Shown in pieces: positions 12,783 to 61,193 of a DNA stretch of 64,000 nucleotides (positions are counted from its first letter, which is position 1; every line of letters begins with the position of its first letter). Both the position numbers and the translations under genes were made by a program. The notes beneath the pieces were generated by a model, which was not told the origin of the DNA, ran no database searches, and saw nothing but the letters and a program-made list of their open reading frames with translations. This DNA is from Candidatus Poribacteria bacterium (GTDB lineage: Bacteria; Poribacteria; WGA-4E; WGA-3G). Location: the NCBI GenBank assembly GCA_963663765.2, contig CAXXUA010000008.1, positions 32,001 through 96,000 on the forward strand, read 5' to 3'.

Positions 12783-13427
12783 TTAACCTCTCTTTTTCCC
12801 CTTCTTATTCATGATAATATGCATCCACAATCCCCAACCGAAACCTGCTACCAACCAGAATGGTAACCCAAAAACAAACAACATCTTCAAGTTCCACTCT
12901 TCTCCATTCATGACATTCCACACCTCCGGTATTACTACCATAAACAACCACATAAATCCCCCCCAAAAGAAAGTGCCTATTAATTTCCAATTTACATCAT
13001 TCGCTTGAAGTAAAGGCCGTTCAAGTACTTTTGCCAATCTTGCTTTTTCTTTCACTATCCATCTATCGCGGAAGAACCGAATAGGGAAATACCAAAGTGG
13101 AAATGTAATGATTAAGATTGCGTAACTACATAAACTCCATAGGCACGGAATTATTTGTTCGCAATTTGGACAAACAAATCCATACCAATGTCCTAATGCA
13201 TGTGCTTTCATCCATATACGTCCATCATTTATCGTTTCGCAGTGGGGACACGGAACATAACTACGTTCCATAAGAGGGTCACAGCTCTCTTTGTCTATCA
13301 ACGTTACCTTTGGCAACCGTACCCCCAAAATCAGTTCGTGGATTATCACAAGCGGGTTTAATATCCAGATAAAGACCAGAGGGTGAGGTAGCGCATGTAT
13401 TTTGTATCTGTTTTTGTCATATTGCAT
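12783..13427 (-). CDS. Hypothetical membrane protein with CxxC pairs
   Basis: Probable start MQYDKNRY at 13427; CPHC and CPNC motifs; several TM segments. Confidence 0.7.
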   Translation of the reverse strand: MQYDKNRYKIHALPHPLVFIWILNPLVIIHELILGVRLPKVTLIDKESCDPLMERSYVPCPHCETINDGRIWMKAHALGHWYGFVCPNCEQIIPCLWSLCSYAILIITFPLWYFPIRFFRDRWIVKEKARLAKVLERPLLQANDVNWKLIGTFFWGGFMWLFMVVIPEVWNVMNGEEWNLKMLFVFGLPFWLVAGFGWGLWMHIIMNKKGKKRG

Positions 13428-13489
13428 TGGTTTATTTTCGTCAATGTTTGTGTTCCAAATAATGTGGAGTTTATTATCTTGATTCGCAT

Positions 13490-14591
13490 TATATCCATTT
13501 ATTTTGTCCAAAACTCCCTGTTCTTTCAAACGTGCAATAAGTTGTGCCTGCGTGTTTGTACCTTTCGTCGAATTGCACGCGCCGCAAAGTAGTTGTAAAT
13601 TATCTTCGTGGTCAGTGCCGCCTTGGGAATGTGGCACGATGTGGTCAACCGTCATATTCCTAAACGGGAATTGAGTTCGACATCCATTGCATAGTCCTTC
13701 CTGTTAACCGAACAAGGTGTGTTTGTGGGTGCGGTAATTAGGGAGCTGTTCACTCCGTTTCGGTATGTCGGTGCGATGGATAACATCTCCGAACATGCCA
13801 ACTTCTTCTCCAGACTGACGCGCACAAGTTCAATTGCTTTCGGTGTTATGTCTATACCGATCCAGTGACGCTGTAAACGTTCAGCAGCGACACAGGTAGT
13901 TGCACACCTACAGAACAGGTCTAACACAAAATCACCTTTGTTACTACTCGCTTTGATGATACGTTCTAACAACGCTATAGGTTTCTGTGTAGGATAACCT
14001 GTGGATTCTTTTGATCGCGAATTGAGTGCGCCTATTTCTGTCCAATTATCCAATTCGGGACGTCCCATAGATTCATCCGTGTAACGTTATAATATCGTGT
14101 CCTCTACCGAAACGGGATTTGGTATTATTTTTAGCACCCGTTGCTGAATTCCATACTACCTCATTTTTAAAGTTGTTCTTACTAAACACCGTATCCATCA
14201 GCATTTTGAGATAGTGACTTGCAGTTGGATCACAGTGCAAGTATATACTCCCTGTGTTATTCAACACACGCTTCATCTCTAACAACCGCACTGCCATCAT
14301 GATTAGGTAAGACTTCATACCTTTACCGTGTGTCAACTCCGCTGCGTGGATCGCTATGTAGAGTGCTGGTTCACGGTCTGTTATCTCACCGTGCCATGCG
14401 TTGTCTACATCAGAAAGCGTCCATGTGTCTTTGAACGCAGCACCAGCTGCCTCGCTGCCAATCGGCGCAGCATAGTTGCGGTTAGAGTTAAACGGCGGGT
14501 CAAGATAAATTAGATCAATAGACTCGCTGTCTATTCCGCGTAGGATAGGTAAGTTGTCGTGTGAAAATACGGCTCGGTTTTGGACGTTCAT
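13490..14591 (-). pseudogene. DNA methyltransferase (N4/N6, DPPF) - HNH nuclease fusion, degraded
   Basis: DLIYLDPPFNS; YPTQKP; decayed motif I VLDLFCRCATT; HNH VDHIVP..GG..NLQLLCGACN; split across frames. Confidence 0.85.
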
Positions 14592-15121
14592 TTGCTAACA
14601 CGATGAAAAGTTAATTCGTTTGTATATATCGGGGAAGATTTATATATGCACATAGCTGCTTTGTAAAGCGGTTCCAGATATAATGTCCTCAAAGGTTTAT
14701 CTATAGTCATAAAATAACGCCAATCAGTAAAAGCATCTTGATACTCTTTCAATATAACCTCTACACTATCTAAATCTTTACGAACTATAATATCCGATTT
14801 TATTTCGTCAAATAGAGATTCTATTTCCGATTTAGATTTAGAAGTTAGTGTATTGAAGAGATTGTAAAGGTTATGATGTTTCTCTATTTTTTTATTTTCT
14901 AGCTGAATTTTATATTTTAATAACAATTCTATACAATGACAAATAATCATTAATGCAGATAAGGTCATTCCAATAAAAAATGGGTTAATGTCTCCATCTT
15001 CAGATTGACTTGATTCATTAATAACTACGACTGATTGCAACATACCAGGGACAGTATGTCGTAAAGCATTTTCTTGAATAACAATCTTTTCCTGTTTGTG
15101 ATTATTACTCATCATACACAT
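14588..15121 (-). CDS. HEPN-like domain protein
   Basis: CIELLLK...HNLYNLF...FTDWRY pattern typical of HEPN-family helical proteins. Confidence 0.6.
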   Translation of the reverse strand: MCMMSNNHKQEKIVIQENALRHTVPGMLQSVVVINESSQSEDGDINPFFIGMTLSALMIICHCIELLLKYKIQLENKKIEKHHNLYNLFNTLTSKSKSEIESLFDEIKSDIIVRKDLDSVEVILKEYQDAFTDWRYFMTIDKPLRTLYLEPLYKAAMCIYKSSPIYTNELTFHRVSK

Positions 15122-20446: not shown

Positions 20447-20959
20447 TCAGATTAAATCAAAATCATTTTTGGGAACATCCATTGCCTCTAAGCACTCAAG
20501 TACCTCTGTCTGATCAACCAAATCAAACTGATGCGTCCCTATATACATATACCGAATTGTCCCAAATTTGTCTATGATAAAGGTTGCAGGTCTTGCTATG
20601 TTGTAAGCCTCAAAACTGAGCCAGTGATATACACCATAACTCTTGATGACACTTCTATCTTTGTCTACCAAAAGTGGAAAAGTGATACCGTTTCGTTCAG
20701 CAAACCCACGCAGTTCTCGAGGCCATTGTCCAGCAATACCAATCGGAGTTCCATGATACTTGGCAAAATCATCAGAGTGAGCTTGCACTGCAGCCAACTG
20801 GCGGCGACTATTCGGTCACCATGTTCCCCTAAAAAAGGTCAAAACTACGTGCTGTTCATCACGAAAATTCTCCAACGACACAACCTGACGTCGATGTGAC
20901 GGAAGTGAAAATTCCGGTGCTATATCACCTATGTTGAGTATTTTGTTCTGACGTGGCAT
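20447..20959 (-). CDS. AhpC/TSA (peroxiredoxin-like) protein with in-frame UGA, probable selenoprotein (U48, UxxS)
   Basis: MPRQNKILNIGDIAPEFSLP...FFRGTW-TGA(20818-20816)-PNSRRQL, continuous with the 116-aa ORF; TGA at the RGxWCPxC Cys position. Confidence 0.85.
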
Positions 20960-21373: not shown

Positions 21374-21500
21374 GTGATAGCACCCACTACCTAAAGGTAG
21401 GGCTTCGGTTTCATAGCAACTGCGGTTTTCTCATAAAGTCCACCGTCTGACTGTCGCTCCACCATCAGGCAGCTATCCCTGCCTGAAGTATATTTATAGC
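21374..21500 (-). ncRNA. Predicted TnpB omega/reRNA scaffold (3' end of tnpB to the right end)
   Basis: Position and terminal hairpin match known TnpB reRNA architecture; 5' boundary is approximate. Confidence 0.55.
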
Positions 21501-22580
21501 AGCGTTTATGTCTCGGTCGTGGTGTGAACCACATTCAGAGCATGTCCACTGCCTATCAGAGAGTGTTAGATTGTTATTGTGGAAACCACAATCCGAACAT
21601 GGCTTTGTCGTAGCTGTCCATTGACTGACTTGAAGGAACTGACGCCTATGTTTTTGACACTTATATTTCAATATCTCAACAAACTGGTAGAAAGCAAGGT
21701 CGGAAACCTTGCGCCCCCAAAGCCGTTTCATACCGTCAAGGTTCAAGGTTTCAAGGACTATCGTATCAAACCTTTCACACAGATAAGTGGCAAGTTTCCA
21801 ATGCCAATCTTTGCGTTGGTTAGCCGCTTTGCGATACAACCTTGCGAGTTGTCGGATACCACGGCACCATCTGTTAGAACCTTTAACCTTGCGAGAAAGC
21901 GATTTGTTGAGACTACGGAGTTGGTTCAAGGATTGTTTCAAAGGTTGCGGGTGTTGGATTTTCTCACCCGTGTTAAGTGTCAAAAAAGCATCTTTCATAC
22001 CGAAGTCTGCCCCAACGTTCTGACCTGTTGTCGGCATCGGTCTAAAATCTGTGTAGGTTGTTATGATGTAAAGCCAATAATCCCCGCAGGCATCACGTTT
22101 GAGTGTGATACGTGCAATACGTCCGTGAAACTCACGGTGTTTATGGAACGTATAAGGCACTTTATCAAATTGCCATTTACGCGTCTTGGAATTCCATTTA
22201 CGAAATGTGATGGTGATACGATTGTTTTTCAGATGCCACCCCGCGTGTCCAGGAAAAGTAATAGATTTAAACTTATGTCTCGGTTTGATATGCGGTCTAC
22301 CGCCAAGTTTCTTGAAAAAACGTTGATACGCTGCGTCAATACGTTTCAATTCTTCTTGAATCGCTTGACTCGGCAACGTTTTCCAATGGGGATGCGTGGT
22401 TGCCTTGAGTTCTGTAAGGTGAGCAGACATAGCATTATAGTTCGCATACGGCAAACCTTCTTTATAACGTTGACGCTGCCACTTATGGAAATACGCATGC
22501 ACTTGCCACATATCGTCAAGCAGATTGCCAAGACGTATCGTATTAGACTGATTAGATATTTTATATTTATAGGTTTTCAT
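21465..22580 (-). CDS. tnpB: RNA-guided endonuclease TnpB
   Basis: RuvC residues in VGADFG, IVLETL and HDRDINAA; zinc finger CSDC/CSEC. Confidence 0.95.
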   Translation of the reverse strand: MKTYKYKISNQSNTIRLGNLLDDMWQVHAYFHKWQRQRYKEGLPYANYNAMSAHLTELKATTHPHWKTLPSQAIQEELKRIDAAYQRFFKKLGGRPHIKPRHKFKSITFPGHAGWHLKNNRITITFRKWNSKTRKWQFDKVPYTFHKHREFHGRIARITLKRDACGDYWLYIITTYTDFRPMPTTGQNVGADFGMKDAFLTLNTGEKIQHPQPLKQSLNQLRSLNKSLSRKVKGSNRWCRGIRQLARLYRKAANQRKDWHWKLATYLCERFDTIVLETLNLDGMKRLWGRKVSDLAFYQFVEILKYKCQKHRRQFLQVSQWTATTKPCSDCGFHNNNLTLSDRQWTCSECGSHHDRDINAAINILQAGIAA

Positions 22581-28043: not shown

Positions 28044-28103
28044 TGTACAAATGAACCATAAACCAAATTTCTACCTTTCTTCCGAAAAAAGATCTAAATA
28101 TAC

Positions 28104-28304
28104 CAGGACGTACGCAGTTTTCATGATTTGATGAAGAATTATGACGAAAAGGGTGTAATTTTCAGCATTTTTTCGGTTTCCAGCGCCAAATCAAGAAATC
28201 AACGGTATGAATGCCTTTTGGCATTCCCCGCCTACAAAGCGCCAAATCAACGGTATGAATGCCATTTAGGCATTCCCCGCCTACCGTTGGGTGCGTAAGT
28301 CCTA
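28104..28304. mobile_element. MITE with CAGGAC(T/G)TACGCA ends and 5-bp TSD TATAC; copy at 56193-56453
   Basis: TIRs and TSDs are visible at both copies; related element at 26339-26441. Confidence 0.8.
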
Positions 28305-28576: not shown

Positions 28577-29140
28577 CAAGGTTATTCAGTTTTCAATAAT
28601 TTTGATAGTATTTTGTTATACCGTTAATATTTTGTAATACCCTCTTGTCCATGTCTTTAGTTCCGTAGGAACGATATGTTTATAGAAAATGTTTTCAACC
28701 CCAATAGAGTTCCGTAGGAACGACATAGAAGAATAGACATATCGTCCCTACGGGACTAAAGACATGGGGAGGGTATTCGTTATCTATACACATATCGTCC
28801 CTACCAAATCAACGCCAAATGCGCCAAATCAACGGTATGAATGCCATTAAGGCATTCCCCGTATGGCATTTGTCGGGACTAAAGAGCGATATTCAGTTTT
28901 CAATAAATTATAGTGAAATATGCAATTAAGTTTACACTTCTTCTGTAGGAGCGATCTCCGAATCGCGACTGAACACCTTGATAGTCGGGAATCGGAGTTC
29001 CCTCCTACACCTGAAAGTGTAAAAATAATTCTATAATTTACTATAAAATTGATGTGTAAAATTCGGTTAGGAAACCGAACCTGGGTATAAACTTTCAGTA
29101 AATCTCAATAACAGAAAACTCTTAAAACTGAATAACCCCG
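28577..29140. mobile_element. CAGGGTTATTCAG-type MITE with nested REP units, a mini-hairpin and a TATAGT MITE
   Basis: Inverted homolog of 2221-2708; cacattat flank duplication. Confidence 0.8.
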
Positions 29141-39798: not shown

Positions 39799-39839
39799 TT
39801 GAATTTATTTCTTATACAATAAATAAGGAGGTGAAACAC

Positions 39840-40085
39840 ATGTCTCTCGATTGGAAACCACGACACAGGGATATGATTATTGGTGGTATTCCGTGGCTTG
39901 CACGAATCTCTGACAAAGCCAGCGCGAAACTACAAGGTATCATCGGTGAATACATATATCCGTGACCACAAGACAAAATGTTCCTGGAGGAACATAAAAT
40001 ATCTGCTGACGAATTCGTTGACATGGTGAAAAACAATCCATCAGATGATGAGATGATTGCTGCCATGAAGGAATTAAATAGCTAA
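39840..40085 (+). CDS. DUF5069-like protein with in-frame UGA (U42), probable selenoprotein, 81 aa
   Basis: AAGGAGGTG RBS; PR...GGIPWLARISDKASAKLQGIIGEYIYP-TGA-PQDKMFLEEHKISADEF...SDDEM; hairpin 12 nt after the TGA. Confidence 0.8.
39978..39995 (+). promoter_or_regulatory. Candidate bacterial SECIS hairpin
   Basis: ATGTTCC-TGGA-GGAACAT; loop starts 19 nt after the UGA with G in loop position 2. Confidence 0.65.
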
Positions 40086-43699: not shown

Positions 43700-45262
43700 C
43701 TATTTTGTTTGTGTTAGAGAGATGTGTTCTATGATTTGAGAAGTTAGTTGGCGTTCCACTTCTCTCATTTTTGGTAGACCCGCGAGATTGTTTGTTTCAT
43801 TTGGATCCTCCTGCACATTAAATAGGAGGTAGGGTTTATTATCTCTGTTTAAAGCGATTTTCCACTCCTGATTTAGCAGCATAGTTTCCTTTGATATTTG
43901 CGATATTGCAAAATCACGGTGATTCGCTTCAGTGTCAACTAAAGTAGGTGATAAGGATTTTCCGAATTGACGATTTTCCATCTTACCGGCTGCCATTTCA
44001 ACCAGTGTGGGACCAATGTCTATCCATTCCACTGGACTTTCACAAACACCTTTCGCTTCATCGCTTTTTAGAGTTTCGGGGGTTCGCACAAGTAGCGGAA
44101 TACGGACTGCACCATTGAGGAAATTGCTCTTGTAAATCAATCCGTGATCACCATTCATTTCACCGTGGTCGGAACAGAAAATGATGACAGTATTATCAAG
44201 TTCTCCGCGTTTATCAATTGTATCCAAGATTTCGCCAATCTGATCGTCAATCAGGGTGACGTTGCCTGCATAGTCCGCACGCATCTTTTCAATATCACCC
44301 TTTTCAAATTTTGGACTCTTCTTTTTGCTTTTCAGGAGGTTGTCTAAACTACCTTGTGGACGATTTCCTGTATGCTGTCGACGTGCTGCAGGTGGCATAT
44401 CCTTAGGATTGTACTTACTTGCATAGGGTTCAGGTGAGTCCCAAGGTTCATGAGGTCCACCGAAACTTACCCAGCAGAACCAAGGTTCTTGCTGTTTATA
44501 GTTTTCTATGTATTGCTTTGCATGTTGTCCGACGTATACATCCGAATCGTTTTCAAGTCCAAGAGGTGTTGGTCTAACAAGGTGGGGTTTCGTTTTAAAT
44601 CTATCCTTATAGTCATCTTTGTACGCATTCCAGACACCTTTTTCTTCCCACATCTCTGTCATATAGGACAAGCAATTCATACTTGCTCGTGGGCCACCGA
44701 TTTCGTTCACATCATCTAACCCGTAAGCATGCATCAAGTGTTCACGTTTGCGTAGATCACCATTATTTGTGTGTAGATGTGTTTTTCCAAATAGGCTGGT
44801 GCGGTATCCAGCATCCCGTATTGCTTGCATCCATGTGGGTGTTTCAGCTGCCAACTTGTGTTTTCCGTTATTCCAAACACCGGTGTTATGTGCATATAAC
44901 CCAGTAGCTAAACTGAGTCGTGCTGGCACACAAACTGGAGAAGTGGTAACGCAGTTCGTATATCTGACACCTTCACTCGCGATCTTATCCATGTTTGGTG
45001 TCTGGACCCAACCACCACTGCAACCCATTGCATCCCAACGTTGTTGGTCTGTCATGATGAAAAGGATATTGGGTTTCTTATGTTGATTAACACTAATGTC
45101 ACTGTTCTGTTGTGTCCACGCATTTGAACCAAGAAGTGATATTGTACCAACTCCTGCAACGCTCAATTCTTTGATGAAAGTTCTGCGGTTAATACTGTCT
45201 GTATTGGCAATCGGTGTGTCTTTATCACATTCTGTTTTTTGGGTTTTGTTTTGCTTTTTCAT
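43700..45262 (-). CDS. Tat-exported formylglycine-dependent sulfatase
   Basis: INRRTFIK Tat motif; PNILFIMTDQ; CVPAR; SDHGE. Confidence 0.92.
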   Translation of the reverse strand: MKKQNKTQKTECDKDTPIANTDSINRRTFIKELSVAGVGTISLLGSNAWTQQNSDISVNQHKKPNILFIMTDQQRWDAMGCSGGWVQTPNMDKIASEGVRYTNCVTTSPVCVPARLSLATGLYAHNTGVWNNGKHKLAAETPTWMQAIRDAGYRTSLFGKTHLHTNNGDLRKREHLMHAYGLDDVNEIGGPRASMNCLSYMTEMWEEKGVWNAYKDDYKDRFKTKPHLVRPTPLGLENDSDVYVGQHAKQYIENYKQQEPWFCWVSFGGPHEPWDSPEPYASKYNPKDMPPAARRQHTGNRPQGSLDNLLKSKKKSPKFEKGDIEKMRADYAGNVTLIDDQIGEILDTIDKRGELDNTVIIFCSDHGEMNGDHGLIYKSNFLNGAVRIPLLVRTPETLKSDEAKGVCESPVEWIDIGPTLVEMAAGKMENRQFGKSLSPTLVDTEANHRDFAISQISKETMLLNQEWKIALNRDNKPYLLFNVQEDPNETNNLAGLPKMREVERQLTSQIIEHISLTQTK

Positions 45263-45532
45263 TTGTGCCTCTGTATTATGGTAAATTTTGGAATTAATTA
45301 CACACTTTCACAGGTAGGAGCGACCTCCTGGTCGCAACCGTATGGAGACCATGTATCAAAACAGTCGCGACCGGCAAATCAACGGTATGAATGCCTTGGG
45401 CGAATACGCGTTTGGTATTCGCCATGATTCCCCGGGTCGCTCCTACCAAAGAAAAGAAAAGGATAGGATAACGACTTGTGCCAGTTAACCCATTGTTTTC
45501 AAAGTTTTTACATATATTAGATTTATAATGCA

Positions 45533-45997
45533 CACATATCGTCCCTACGGGACTAAAGCGGATGTACTATGACGTATTTCTATAAACATATCGTCCCTAC
45601 GGGACTAAATGGTTTTCTTGCTATACATTTATTGTATGTGTCCATTGATGATCTACTACTTAAACAGATGACTACTGGGTTCTTCAGCATTGAACTTTTA
45701 TTTTATGCTAAAATTAATTGCCGAAAGAACCACTAAAGAGGATGTACTATGACGTATTTCTATAAACATATCGTCCCTACGGGACTAAAGCGGATGTACT
45801 ATGACGTATTTCTATAAACATATCGTCCCTACGGGACTAAAGCGGATGTACTATGACGTATTTCTATAAACATATCGTTCCTACGGGACTAAAGCGGATG
45901 TACTATGACGTATTTCTATAAACATATCGTCCCTACGGGACTGAAGAGGATGTACTATGACGTATTTCTATAAACATATCGTCCCTACGGGACTGAA
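45533..45997. repeat. Tandem array of 52-bp REP-like units (CATATCGTCCCTACGGGACTAAAG core, ~7 cores) interrupted by a 121-bp MITE
   Basis: Identical inter-core sequence; insert at 45611-45731. Confidence 0.9.
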
Positions 45998-46214
45998 GAT
46001 CGTTTCAAACTATGAAGGACACCTGCAAAACGCCATGCTTTTGTGAAACAATGATTAACATATAGTTATTTAACACAACTCGTTAGGATACTTACATTAC
46101 AACCAATATGGTAAATTATAGAAAAGATTAGGATACTTACATTACAACCAATATGGTAAATTGTAGAACTGTAAACTTATTTTCAAATTTCATCATAGTA
46201 AGGACATTCACTGT

Positions 46215-47591
46215 TTACTTTTTCGTTTGGGTATGGAACAGATGTTCTAAAACTTGCAATCTTAATGCGGTTTCTAACTCTTTCATTTCCGGTAAACCCG
46301 CAAGATTGTTTGTTTCGTCTGGGTCATTTTTCACATCAAACAGGAGATAGGGTACTCCGTCTTTATTCAATGCGATTTTCCATTCTTGATTAAGCAGCAT
46401 TATCTCACCAGAGATCTCTGAGATTGCATATTCCCGATGTGTTCCTTCTGTATCATCAAGGACTGGACATAATGATTTACCGTATTGTCGGTGTTTGATC
46501 TCTCCACCTGCCAATTCCACAAGTGTTGGACCAATATCAATCCACTCAACAGGACTTTCACAAACCTGATTCTCTGAAGCGTTTTTCAATGATTCAGGGG
46601 TTCGGAGAAGTAAGGGGATTCGCACTGACCCGTTAAGGAAATTACCTTTATAGATTAGACCGTAATCAGCATTCATTTCACCGTGGTCAGAGGAGTGGAT
46701 AATGACGGTATTTTCTAATTCACCGCGCTTCTGTATTGCATCAAGGATTTCGCCAATCTGTGCATCAATCAGATTGACATTACCTGCATAGTTTGCACGC
46801 ATTCTCCCAACTTCACCTGCTTCAAACTTTGGATTCATGCGATTCATCATATTATCCAAATTACCACGTGGACGATCCCCAGCAGGTGGTCGAGGAATGG
46901 GGGGTGGCATGTCATTTGGGTCATACATGCTTGCATAGGGTTCTGGTGTATCCCAAGGTTCGTGCGGACCACCGAAACTTACCCAACAACACCATGGTTC
47001 TTCACGATTATAGTTTTGGAGGTACTGCTTTGCTTGTTGTCCTACATAGACATCTGCATAATCTTCAAGATCAAGTGGTGAGGGACGAACCATATAGGGT
47101 TTTTTCTTGAATCTTTCACCATAATCAGCTTTGTATTTTTGCCAAACACCTTTTTCCTCCCACATCTCTGTCATGTGAGAGAGTACACGACTACTTGCCC
47201 TTGGACCACCAATCTCGTTCACATCGTCTAAACCGTAAGCGTTCATTAGGTCTTCGCGGTCTCGGAGGTCACCATTGTGAGGGTGGAGGTGTGTTTTTCC
47301 AAAAAGACTGGTACGGTAGCCAGCATTGCGAACAGACTGCATCCAGGTAGGTGTTTCTGCTGACATGGTGTGTGTCATATTGTTCCAAACACCGGTGTTG
47401 TGCGGATACAAACCAGTTGCTAAACTCAGTCGTGTTGGAATACAAACGGGTGAAGTAGTAACACAGTTGGTAAATCGGACACCTTCACTTGCGATTCGGT
47501 CTAAGTTCGGGGTTTGTACCCAGTCGCCGCTGCAGCTCATTGCATCCCATCGCTGTTGGTCTGTCATGAGAAGTAGTATGTTTGGTTTCAT
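46215..47591 (-). CDS. Sulfatase without a signal peptide (paralog of 43700..45262)
   Basis: MKPNILLLMTDQ; CIPTR. Confidence 0.93.
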   Translation of the reverse strand: MKPNILLLMTDQQRWDAMSCSGDWVQTPNLDRIASEGVRFTNCVTTSPVCIPTRLSLATGLYPHNTGVWNNMTHTMSAETPTWMQSVRNAGYRTSLFGKTHLHPHNGDLRDREDLMNAYGLDDVNEIGGPRASSRVLSHMTEMWEEKGVWQKYKADYGERFKKKPYMVRPSPLDLEDYADVYVGQQAKQYLQNYNREEPWCCWVSFGGPHEPWDTPEPYASMYDPNDMPPPIPRPPAGDRPRGNLDNMMNRMNPKFEAGEVGRMRANYAGNVNLIDAQIGEILDAIQKRGELENTVIIHSSDHGEMNADYGLIYKGNFLNGSVRIPLLLRTPESLKNASENQVCESPVEWIDIGPTLVELAGGEIKHRQYGKSLCPVLDDTEGTHREYAISEISGEIMLLNQEWKIALNKDGVPYLLFDVKNDPDETNNLAGLPEMKELETALRLQVLEHLFHTQTKK

Positions 47592-56192: not shown

Positions 56193-56453
56193 CAGGACTT
56201 ACGCAGTTTTCATGATTTGATGAAAATTATGACGAAAATGGTGTAATTTTCAGCATTTTTTCGGTTTCCAGCGCCAAATCAAGAAATCAACGGTATGAAT
56301 GCCTTTTGGCATTCGCTGGGTATGAATGCCTTTTGGCATTCCCCGCCTACAAAGCGCCAAATCAAGTAATCAACGGTATGAATACCTTATGGTATTCCCG
56401 GGGTATGAATGCCTTTTGGCATTCCCCGCCTTCCGTTGGGTGCGTAAGTCCTG
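56193..56453. mobile_element. CAGGACTTACGCA MITE with TSD GGTTA containing four mini-hairpin modules
   Basis: TIRs, TSD and repeated GGTATGAAT(G/A)CC..GG(C/T)ATTC. Confidence 0.85.
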
Positions 56454-60966: not shown

Positions 60967-61193
60967 ATACATGTCTCATTAAGTAGTTGCACTGATTTTG
61001 CGGGTTGTAGGCCGACTTTACGGTAGGAGCGACCTCCCGGTCACGACCCGGTGAATGCCAAAAGGCATTCATACCGTTGATTCGGAGGTCTCTCCTACCA
61101 TATCTCCTCTGCTAATGAGACATTGATTTTTGTAATGATTTTCAATTGATTAGCAAGTGACAAATACGGTATTCACTACATTGAATCTATATT

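Follow-up and report, generated by a model that had tools for sequence, protein, structure and literature searches.

A short DUF5069 gene of Candidatus Poribacteria with UGA at the family cysteine, apparently a selenoprotein of an undescribed family

In the model of the bacterial selenocysteine insertion sequence (bSECIS) set out in the legend to Fig. 2 of PMC13188914, a stem of 4–16 bp carries an apical loop of 3–9 nt with G in the first two loop positions, the distance from UGA to loop is 16–37 nt, and the minimum free energy is −7.5 kcal/mol or lower. Selenocysteine (Sec) replaces a reactive Cys in nearly all known selenoproteins, as is stated generally in the same paper (PMC13188914), and its Table 1, an inventory from 2026 covering 119 families of prokaryotic selenoproteins, includes AhpC/TSA (UxxS) as a catalogued family. 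New families are still being reported regularly, with nine in one 2025 study, going by the available part of its text. According to the accessible sections of PMC13582414, nine phyla have Sec-type group 4 hydrogenases, Poribacteria being one of them, and those of PMC5649159 describe the co-occurrence of SelA and SelB in most sponge-symbiont bins. For Ca. Poribacteria WGA-3G, COG counts of 2 for SelA, 1 for SelB and 1 for SelD could be read from Table S4 of the latter, with columns counted by hand.

The DNA analysed here, referred to as the window, is the whole 64,000-nt stretch from Candidatus Poribacteria bacterium assembly GCA_963663765.2, contig CAXXUA010000008.1, positions 32,001–96,000 of the forward strand. 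A previous sequence-only reading of the window had described a frame opening with MSLDWKPR behind a strong ribosome-binding site, interrupted by TGA and continuing for 39 codons to TAA, with a perfect 7-bp stem (ATGTTCC-TGGA-GGAACAT) starting 12 nt past the TGA. The ribosome-binding site was present, and both frame and stem were found exactly as described (Table 1). With TGA translated as U, the ATG at 39840 is followed through 41 codons to the TGA and, after the further 39 codons, by TAA at 40083–40085, to give the product MSLDWKPR...GEYIYP-U-PQDKMFLEEH...KELNS.

Table 1. Positions in the window of the DUF5069 gene, its proposed recoding signals and a second TGA-containing gene.
Feature	Position	Strand	Basis
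Ribosome-binding site AAGGAGGTG	39825..39833	+	Read directly; 6-nt spacer to ATG
DUF5069 short-form gene, 81 codons + TAA, in-frame TGA at codon 42	39840..40085	+	Translation, PF16798 match, pN/pS
UGA codon 42, proposed selenocysteine codon	39963..39965	+	TGA in 81/81 sequences; family Cys column Y-P-[U/C]-P-x-D
Proposed bacterial SECIS hairpin	39978..39995	+	Stem 39978-39984, loop UGGA 39985-39988, stem 39989-39995
AhpC/TSA gene, probable selenoprotein	20447-20959	-	TGA at 20816-20818; Pfam match when read through

For family assignment, the read-through protein was compared with Pfam, a check that had been suggested together with the original reading. With TGA read as Cys, it matched DUF5069 (PF16798) at E 6.7e-14 with a score of 52.6 bits, where the cut-off is 27, and the match ran as one domain across the TGA, placing residues 7–78 on profile positions 4–75 of 133. 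The gene product covers only this N-terminal core of the profile, short of the whole domain; because other short DUF5069 members exist, such partial coverage is compatible with membership of the family's N-terminal core. The TGA had been said to fall on the conserved Cys of the family, and the column is indeed the Cys of Y-P-C-P-x-D. A solved family member could be identified by family-profile search: 3omd (E 3.2e-42), an 'uncharacterized protein' from Leptospirillum rubarum, in which the column is occupied by Cys within Y-N-C-P-L-D. An AlphaFold model of the read-through protein, built on 99 sequences, reached a pLDDT of 82.4, with helices at residues 20–32, 43–51, 56–65 and 69–80. By Foldseek, this model aligned with 3omd_A at a TM score of 0.85 and an rmsd of 1.1 Å over 73 columns; besides 3omd, no PDB chain was returned at E ≤ 0.001. 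Across the family P7, R22, D25, K26, D45 and D69 are nearly invariant, together with the Cys/Sec residue.

In GTDB species genomes, 212 relatives of the gene were detected, and the best 80 of these 212 were fetched for analysis at the DNA level. They comprise 76 Candidatus or uncultured Poribacteria MAGs, many of them complete chromosomes, and 4 entries titled only 'uncultured bacterium'. Codon 42 is TGA in all 80 loci fetched, or 81 of 81 with the window sequence; the ATG has the same position in 80/80, and the frame stays open past the TGA for 38–41 further codons in 80/80. The presence of TGC or TGT in close relatives had been named beforehand as a sign of a recent nonsense mutation or a sequencing error, and TGA was found in every fetched relative instead. 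Since the 80 loci represent independent assemblies of different species, complete long-read chromosomes included, the idea that the TGA arose by faulty sequencing or assembly, or as a nonsense mutation newly acquired by this single genome, can be regarded as ruled out, its probability being negligible.

The 81 coding sequences (window plus 80 relatives) are all distinct, with a synonymous divergence pS of about 0.58–0.6. The ratio pN/pS was 0.076 upstream of the TGA and 0.143 downstream; with the downstream part read in its two alternative frames, it was 1.95 and 2.86. Purifying selection in frame past the TGA, combined with the conserved open frame, indicates that the downstream part is translated as one protein with the upstream part. 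Conservation of the downstream frame, another point proposed for checking, was thereby confirmed, and a pseudogene was rejected on the same grounds. Met47 is kept in 61/81 sequences, and the other 20 have Leu, Val or Ser at this position, with a TCG codon in one case; this poor conservation speaks against a separate downstream start.

To survey the residues found opposite the TGA, a profile search was made against 1.84 billion cluster representatives (50% identity), from which 512 proteins were obtained at E ≤ 0.001 and 53 at E ≤ 1e-10. The column could be inspected in 164 database proteins plus the query, drawn from 150 listed matches of the 512 and 18 from a first search. Cys occupies it in 103/164; Ser is found in 22/164, mostly tandem-repeat proteins, and Trp in 12/164. 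In 14/164 the chain ends at or just before the column, 12 of these exactly after Pro41, and the remaining 13/164 have other residues or start after the column. One database protein, P0018, begins at Met47.

The 12 chains ending exactly after Pro41 and the start of P0018 are what favours TGA as a true stop, by which a 41-residue peptide would be made, with or without a separate 35-residue product, and the downstream frame would be a decaying remnant. This is hard to reconcile with the selection results over 81 distinct sequences, where pN/pS is 0.143 in this frame and rises to 1.95 and 2.86 in the others; neither indels nor extra stops are seen, Met47 is replaced in 20/81, and the Pfam and 3omd alignments continue unbroken across the TGA. 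A true stop was accordingly considered highly improbable.

Equally small is the probability given to near-cognate or suppressor read-through (e.g. with Trp) or to TGA as a sense codon in this lineage, for which the W at the column in 12 database homologues could be cited. TGA ends 11 of the 53 long ORFs of the window, several of them with complete Pfam domains, from which the code is taken to be standard. Among relatives of the AhpC/TSA gene of the window, the same W also takes the place of the peroxidatic Cys, where Trp would be non-functional. All Trp forms lie on short metagenome contigs (P0002–P0011, 530–1237 bp; P0021, 652 bp; P0152, 1020 bp), and P0002–P0004 are 98–99% identical to loci whose DNA reads TGA, whereas proteins from longer contigs have Cys at the column and never Trp. 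Full-length letter identity between a W-bearing or truncated protein and a fetched locus was not found, the best value being 98–99%. Given the same W at the TGA of relatives of the AhpC gene, the W at the DUF5069 column is probably a TGA translated under a code-4 gene call.

A more distant group of sequences stops after Y-P (P0041, P0043, P0056 and others) at 55–63% identity and has P0021 as a full-length W form. As this group adjoins the Cys forms P0012 and P0013, Sec and Cys appear to alternate among close relatives. Alternation of Cys and TGA at this column, which the sequence-only reading had proposed looking for, is thus seen, with TGA in 81/81 orthologous sequences and Cys in 103/164 database proteins.

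Attention was then given to the hairpin downstream of the TGA, for which a G-containing apical loop at the distance of a bacterial SECIS had been claimed. The loop, UGGA, starts 19 nt after the UGA, in line with that claim, and in all four aspects of geometry the hairpin agrees with the bSECIS model (loop 4 nt, stem 6–7 bp, G at position 2, distance 19 nt). Folded alone, it gives −6.9 kcal/mol with 7 bp or −5.8 kcal/mol with 6 bp, weaker than the −7.5 cut-off. With UGA plus 45 nt folded, the value was −8.3 kcal/mol in the window and −7.5 kcal/mol or lower in 79/81 sequences, reached via non-conserved extra pairs. A perfect 7-bp hairpin 8–22 nt downstream is found for 34 of the 2716 TGA triplets of the window. 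As a 71-nt fold was no better than shuffled sequences (z −0.89), single-sequence stability is not counted as evidence, and the hairpin taken alone is weak evidence.

What raises the hairpin above chance is its association with TGA in 81/81 sequences and a core with frozen synonymous sites. The core UGUUCC-UGGA-GGAACA, corresponding to the inner 6 bp (39979–39994), is identical in 78/81; two of the three deviant cores turn a pair into G·U and one loses the outer pair. The seventh pair forms in 53/81, as A-U in 51 and G-C in 2, and the spacing between UGA and hairpin is unaltered by indels throughout the 81 sequences. Four consecutive codons within the hairpin are synonymously frozen at 0–0.1 bit (TTC 81/81, CTG 80/81, GAG 81/81, GAA 80/81); the codon entropy of the 47 other degenerate codons that are conserved averages 1.03 bit, and only 3 of them fall below 0.1 bit. 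Compensatory covariation was absent from the stem core in the 81 sequences, where only the optional seventh pair varies, so that the hairpin is supported by its invariance rather than by compensatory changes. RNAalifold on the 81 sequences returned the 6-bp core only, with no conserved lower stem or bulge. At E ≤ 10, Rfam matches around the hairpin were at chance level, and over the whole window no Rfam family reached its gathering score.

Outside the hairpin, the Ala56 codon GCT (40005–40007) is kept in 80/81 sequences, and the Asp4 and Lys26 codons show almost no synonymous variation either. The Ala56 codon might form part of a weak lower SECIS stem; consistent lower-stem pairing was looked for in the folds of UGA plus 45 nt, and none was found.

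Taken together, the TGA in 81/81 sequences, its position on the family Cys column, selection in the downstream frame and constraint on the hairpin support the claim of a Sec-containing DUF5069 member, and on this sequence evidence the gene is very probably a functional selenoprotein gene with UGA codon 42 recoded as Sec. In the proposed mechanism, codon 42 of the mRNA would be recoded by the ordinary bacterial route, with the intragenic hairpin (6–7-bp stem, UGGA loop, loop start 19 nt past the UGA) recruiting SelB with Sec-tRNA(Sec) to the ribosome. The product would be a largely helical DUF5069 protein of 81 residues in which Sec replaces the family Cys. SelB binding and selenium incorporation at codon 42 are steps that we infer from the conserved sequence. 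Genes for selA, selB and selD were not seen among the 53 long ORFs of the 64-kb window, nor was tRNA-Sec, or indeed any tRNA, in the 64-kb window or the flanks of the 80 loci. Indirect support for such machinery is given by a second UGA gene of the window, described below, and by the SelA, SelB and SelD COG counts of Ca. Poribacteria WGA-3G.

The TGA, the selection and the hairpin fit Cys and Sec equally, and the same hairpin could in principle direct insertion of Cys at UGA by a SelC*-type tRNA (tRNA-ReC), making an ordinary Cys protein written with UGA. Such tRNA-ReC-like tRNAs decode UGA as Cys, given a SECIS, in several phyla, as reported in the accessible sections of PMC13582414. Within those sections, tRNA-ReC is assigned to Armatimonadota, Desulfobacterota and JAPLJL01, and Poribacteria are named only among the Sec-type lineages (PMC13582414). 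The Poribacteria reference genome, moreover, has the SelA, SelB and SelD COG hits needed for making Sec (PMC5649159). It is also hard to explain why UGA would be kept in 81/81 sequences if TGC or TGT gave the same protein without special machinery. Decoding as Cys was consequently judged very improbable, if a little less so than a true stop or Trp insertion, and decoding as Sec is preferred.

To look for further genes of this kind, the window was scanned for TGA-interrupted frames, giving 46 candidates, of which 22 were taken to Pfam after removal of those embedded in evident genes that run in a different frame or on the opposite strand. Among these 22, a domain continuing across the TGA was seen only in the AhpC/TSA gene of Table 1. 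This gene reads MPRQNK...FFRGTW-U-PNSRRQL, U being placed at the peroxidatic residue within G-T-W-U-P-N-S. On read-through, the product gives a Pfam AhpC-TSA match over positions 1–124 of 124 (E 8.4e-28); without read-through, only a fragment from profile position 45 is obtained. Of the best 120 relatives listed, 117 cover only 49–68% and the other 3 are complete, having W where the TGA stands; five of the 120 sequences listed were inspected. The same genome thus has another UGA at a Cys position. A small hairpin, GCC-AGUU-GGC, which can be extended, follows the TGA of this gene, and the gene's own stop is also TGA. Adjoining it is a TnpB-type gene (OrfB_IS605 plus a Cas12f1-like TNB domain) at 21468–22580 (−); no TnpA turned up in the long ORFs.

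A split DNA methylase was rejected as a Sec candidate, the halves being out of frame across the TGA. This methylase (N6_N4_Mtase), in the region 12786–15121 (−), consists of two mutually out-of-frame ORFs at 14076–14591 and 13655–14068, and has as flanking ORFs an HNH endonuclease, matched from profile position 15 onwards, and a weak HEPN-like one; the region gives the impression of a restriction-modification or defence island that has decayed. A short intergenic repeat, which may be REP- or MITE-like, was present in at least 4 copies (about 28100–28300, 28810–28861, 56193–56452 and 61049–61085), 76–97% identical and in some cases inverted. Two sulfatase genes lie at 43700–47591 (−), and several xylose-isomerase-like TIM barrel and GFO/IDH/MocA oxidoreductase genes are found elsewhere in the window, a content that is presumably typical of Poribacteria.

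Genomic context was examined for indications of function. The DUF5069 gene stands in a same-strand row of Omp85/PD40 protein, UPF0182, DUF5069, PheA and QueG, and in the 80 loci these neighbours were found 75 (Omp85/PD40), 79 (UPF0182), 78 (PheA) and 71 (QueG) times. This conserved row marks it as a core gene and points to no pathway. Fusions were sought in 24 long family representatives, in which Cupin_2 occurs in 3 and a methyltransferase, a dienelactone hydrolase, DUF2249, an AI-2E transporter and an amino-acid-kinase fragment occur once each, the remaining representatives having DUF5069 alone or in tandem. With fusion partners as heterogeneous as these, a single pathway is not indicated.

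In the AlphaFold model, residue 42 lies directly before helix 43–51, at the helix N-cap, and is flanked by prolines. Placement of Y-P-U-P-x-D at a helix N-cap is typical of a reactive thiol or selenol. From this position between prolines before the helix, and because Sec usually replaces a reactive Cys, residue 42 could be a redox-active or sulfur/selenium-carrying nucleophile, a proposal drawn from the model and from analogy that we put forward tentatively, short of calling it probable. The redox or metal-binding role suggested for the family in the sequence-only reading is likewise hypothetical.

As regards novelty, full-text literature searches for 'DUF5069' and 'PF16798' returned no mention, and neither name occurs in the inventory of 119 families (PMC13188914 Table 1) or in the supplementary file of BSepDB. 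DUF5069 is also not among the nine new families of the deep-Sep paper, as far as they are given in its available text. NCBIfam release 20 gave 0 matches at E ≤ 1, the family being without a model there. The supposition that DUF5069 had not been described as a selenoprotein thus held against the inventory, NCBIfam and the literature searches. Public Poribacteria annotations cut the DUF5069 gene at codon 41 and the AhpC-type gene at its N-terminus.

The Sec form of DUF5069 is apparently a real, undescribed selenoprotein family using ordinary bacterial recoding, by which the prokaryotic selenoproteome would gain a family. The recoding mechanism is textbook, and the result is useful and not surprising. 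As Sec almost always replaces a reactive Cys, the Sec form would mark the conserved Cys of DUF5069, as present in 3omd, as an active centre, and would suggest thiol/selenol chemistry for a family that is structurally solved and uncharacterised. More broadly, DUF5069 may be a hitherto overlooked family of selenoproteins, all-helical and not of the thioredoxin fold, whose single Y-P-[U/C]-P-x-D residue serves as a catalytic nucleophile in redox or sulfur/selenium-transfer chemistry and whose Sec form has become fixed throughout Poribacteria in a core gene of conserved synteny; this combined reading is offered as a possibility to which we would assign somewhat under an even chance. If true, it would provide the first functional handle on the whole DUF5069 family, with its 512 representatives at E ≤ 0.001. 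Fixation of a UGA-Sec gene in all 80 species genomes fetched, which belong to uncultivated sponge symbionts, would further point to a sponge host in which selenium is steadily available.

For comparison with known systems, sulfur carriers of the TusA/SirA type may be taken first, in which a C-P-x-P motif stands at the N-terminus of a helix. DUF5069 resembles these in having a single conserved, Pro-flanked Cys at a helix start, and one DUF5069 protein is fused to DUF2249, which we take to be TusA-like; the likeness serves as a lead only, as DUF5069, unlike these carriers, is all-helical and Foldseek gave no match besides 3omd. The AhpC/TSA gene of the same window is unrelated to DUF5069 in fold and sequence. 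In the arrangement of the gene, a comparison can be made with the E. coli fdhF-type genes, described by the Zhang and Gladyshev model as cited in the available part of PMC13188914. As in these genes, a UGA at a Cys position is followed directly by an intragenic hairpin with a small loop, G at position 2 and then another G, the UGA-to-loop distance being 19 nt here; unlike in the fdhF type, the window hairpin is short, with 6–7 bp and −5.8 to −6.9 kcal/mol alone. Within the family itself, the window protein of 81 residues is without the C-terminal part present in the 145-residue 3omd, and short Cys forms of 86–99 residues also exist, e.g. P0024, a DUF5069 domain-containing protein from Chloroflexota. 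The gene product and 3omd have in common the motif G-E-Y-x-Y-x-C-P-x-D, with U in place of C here, so that a Sec codon in the window gene stands where 3omd has Cys.
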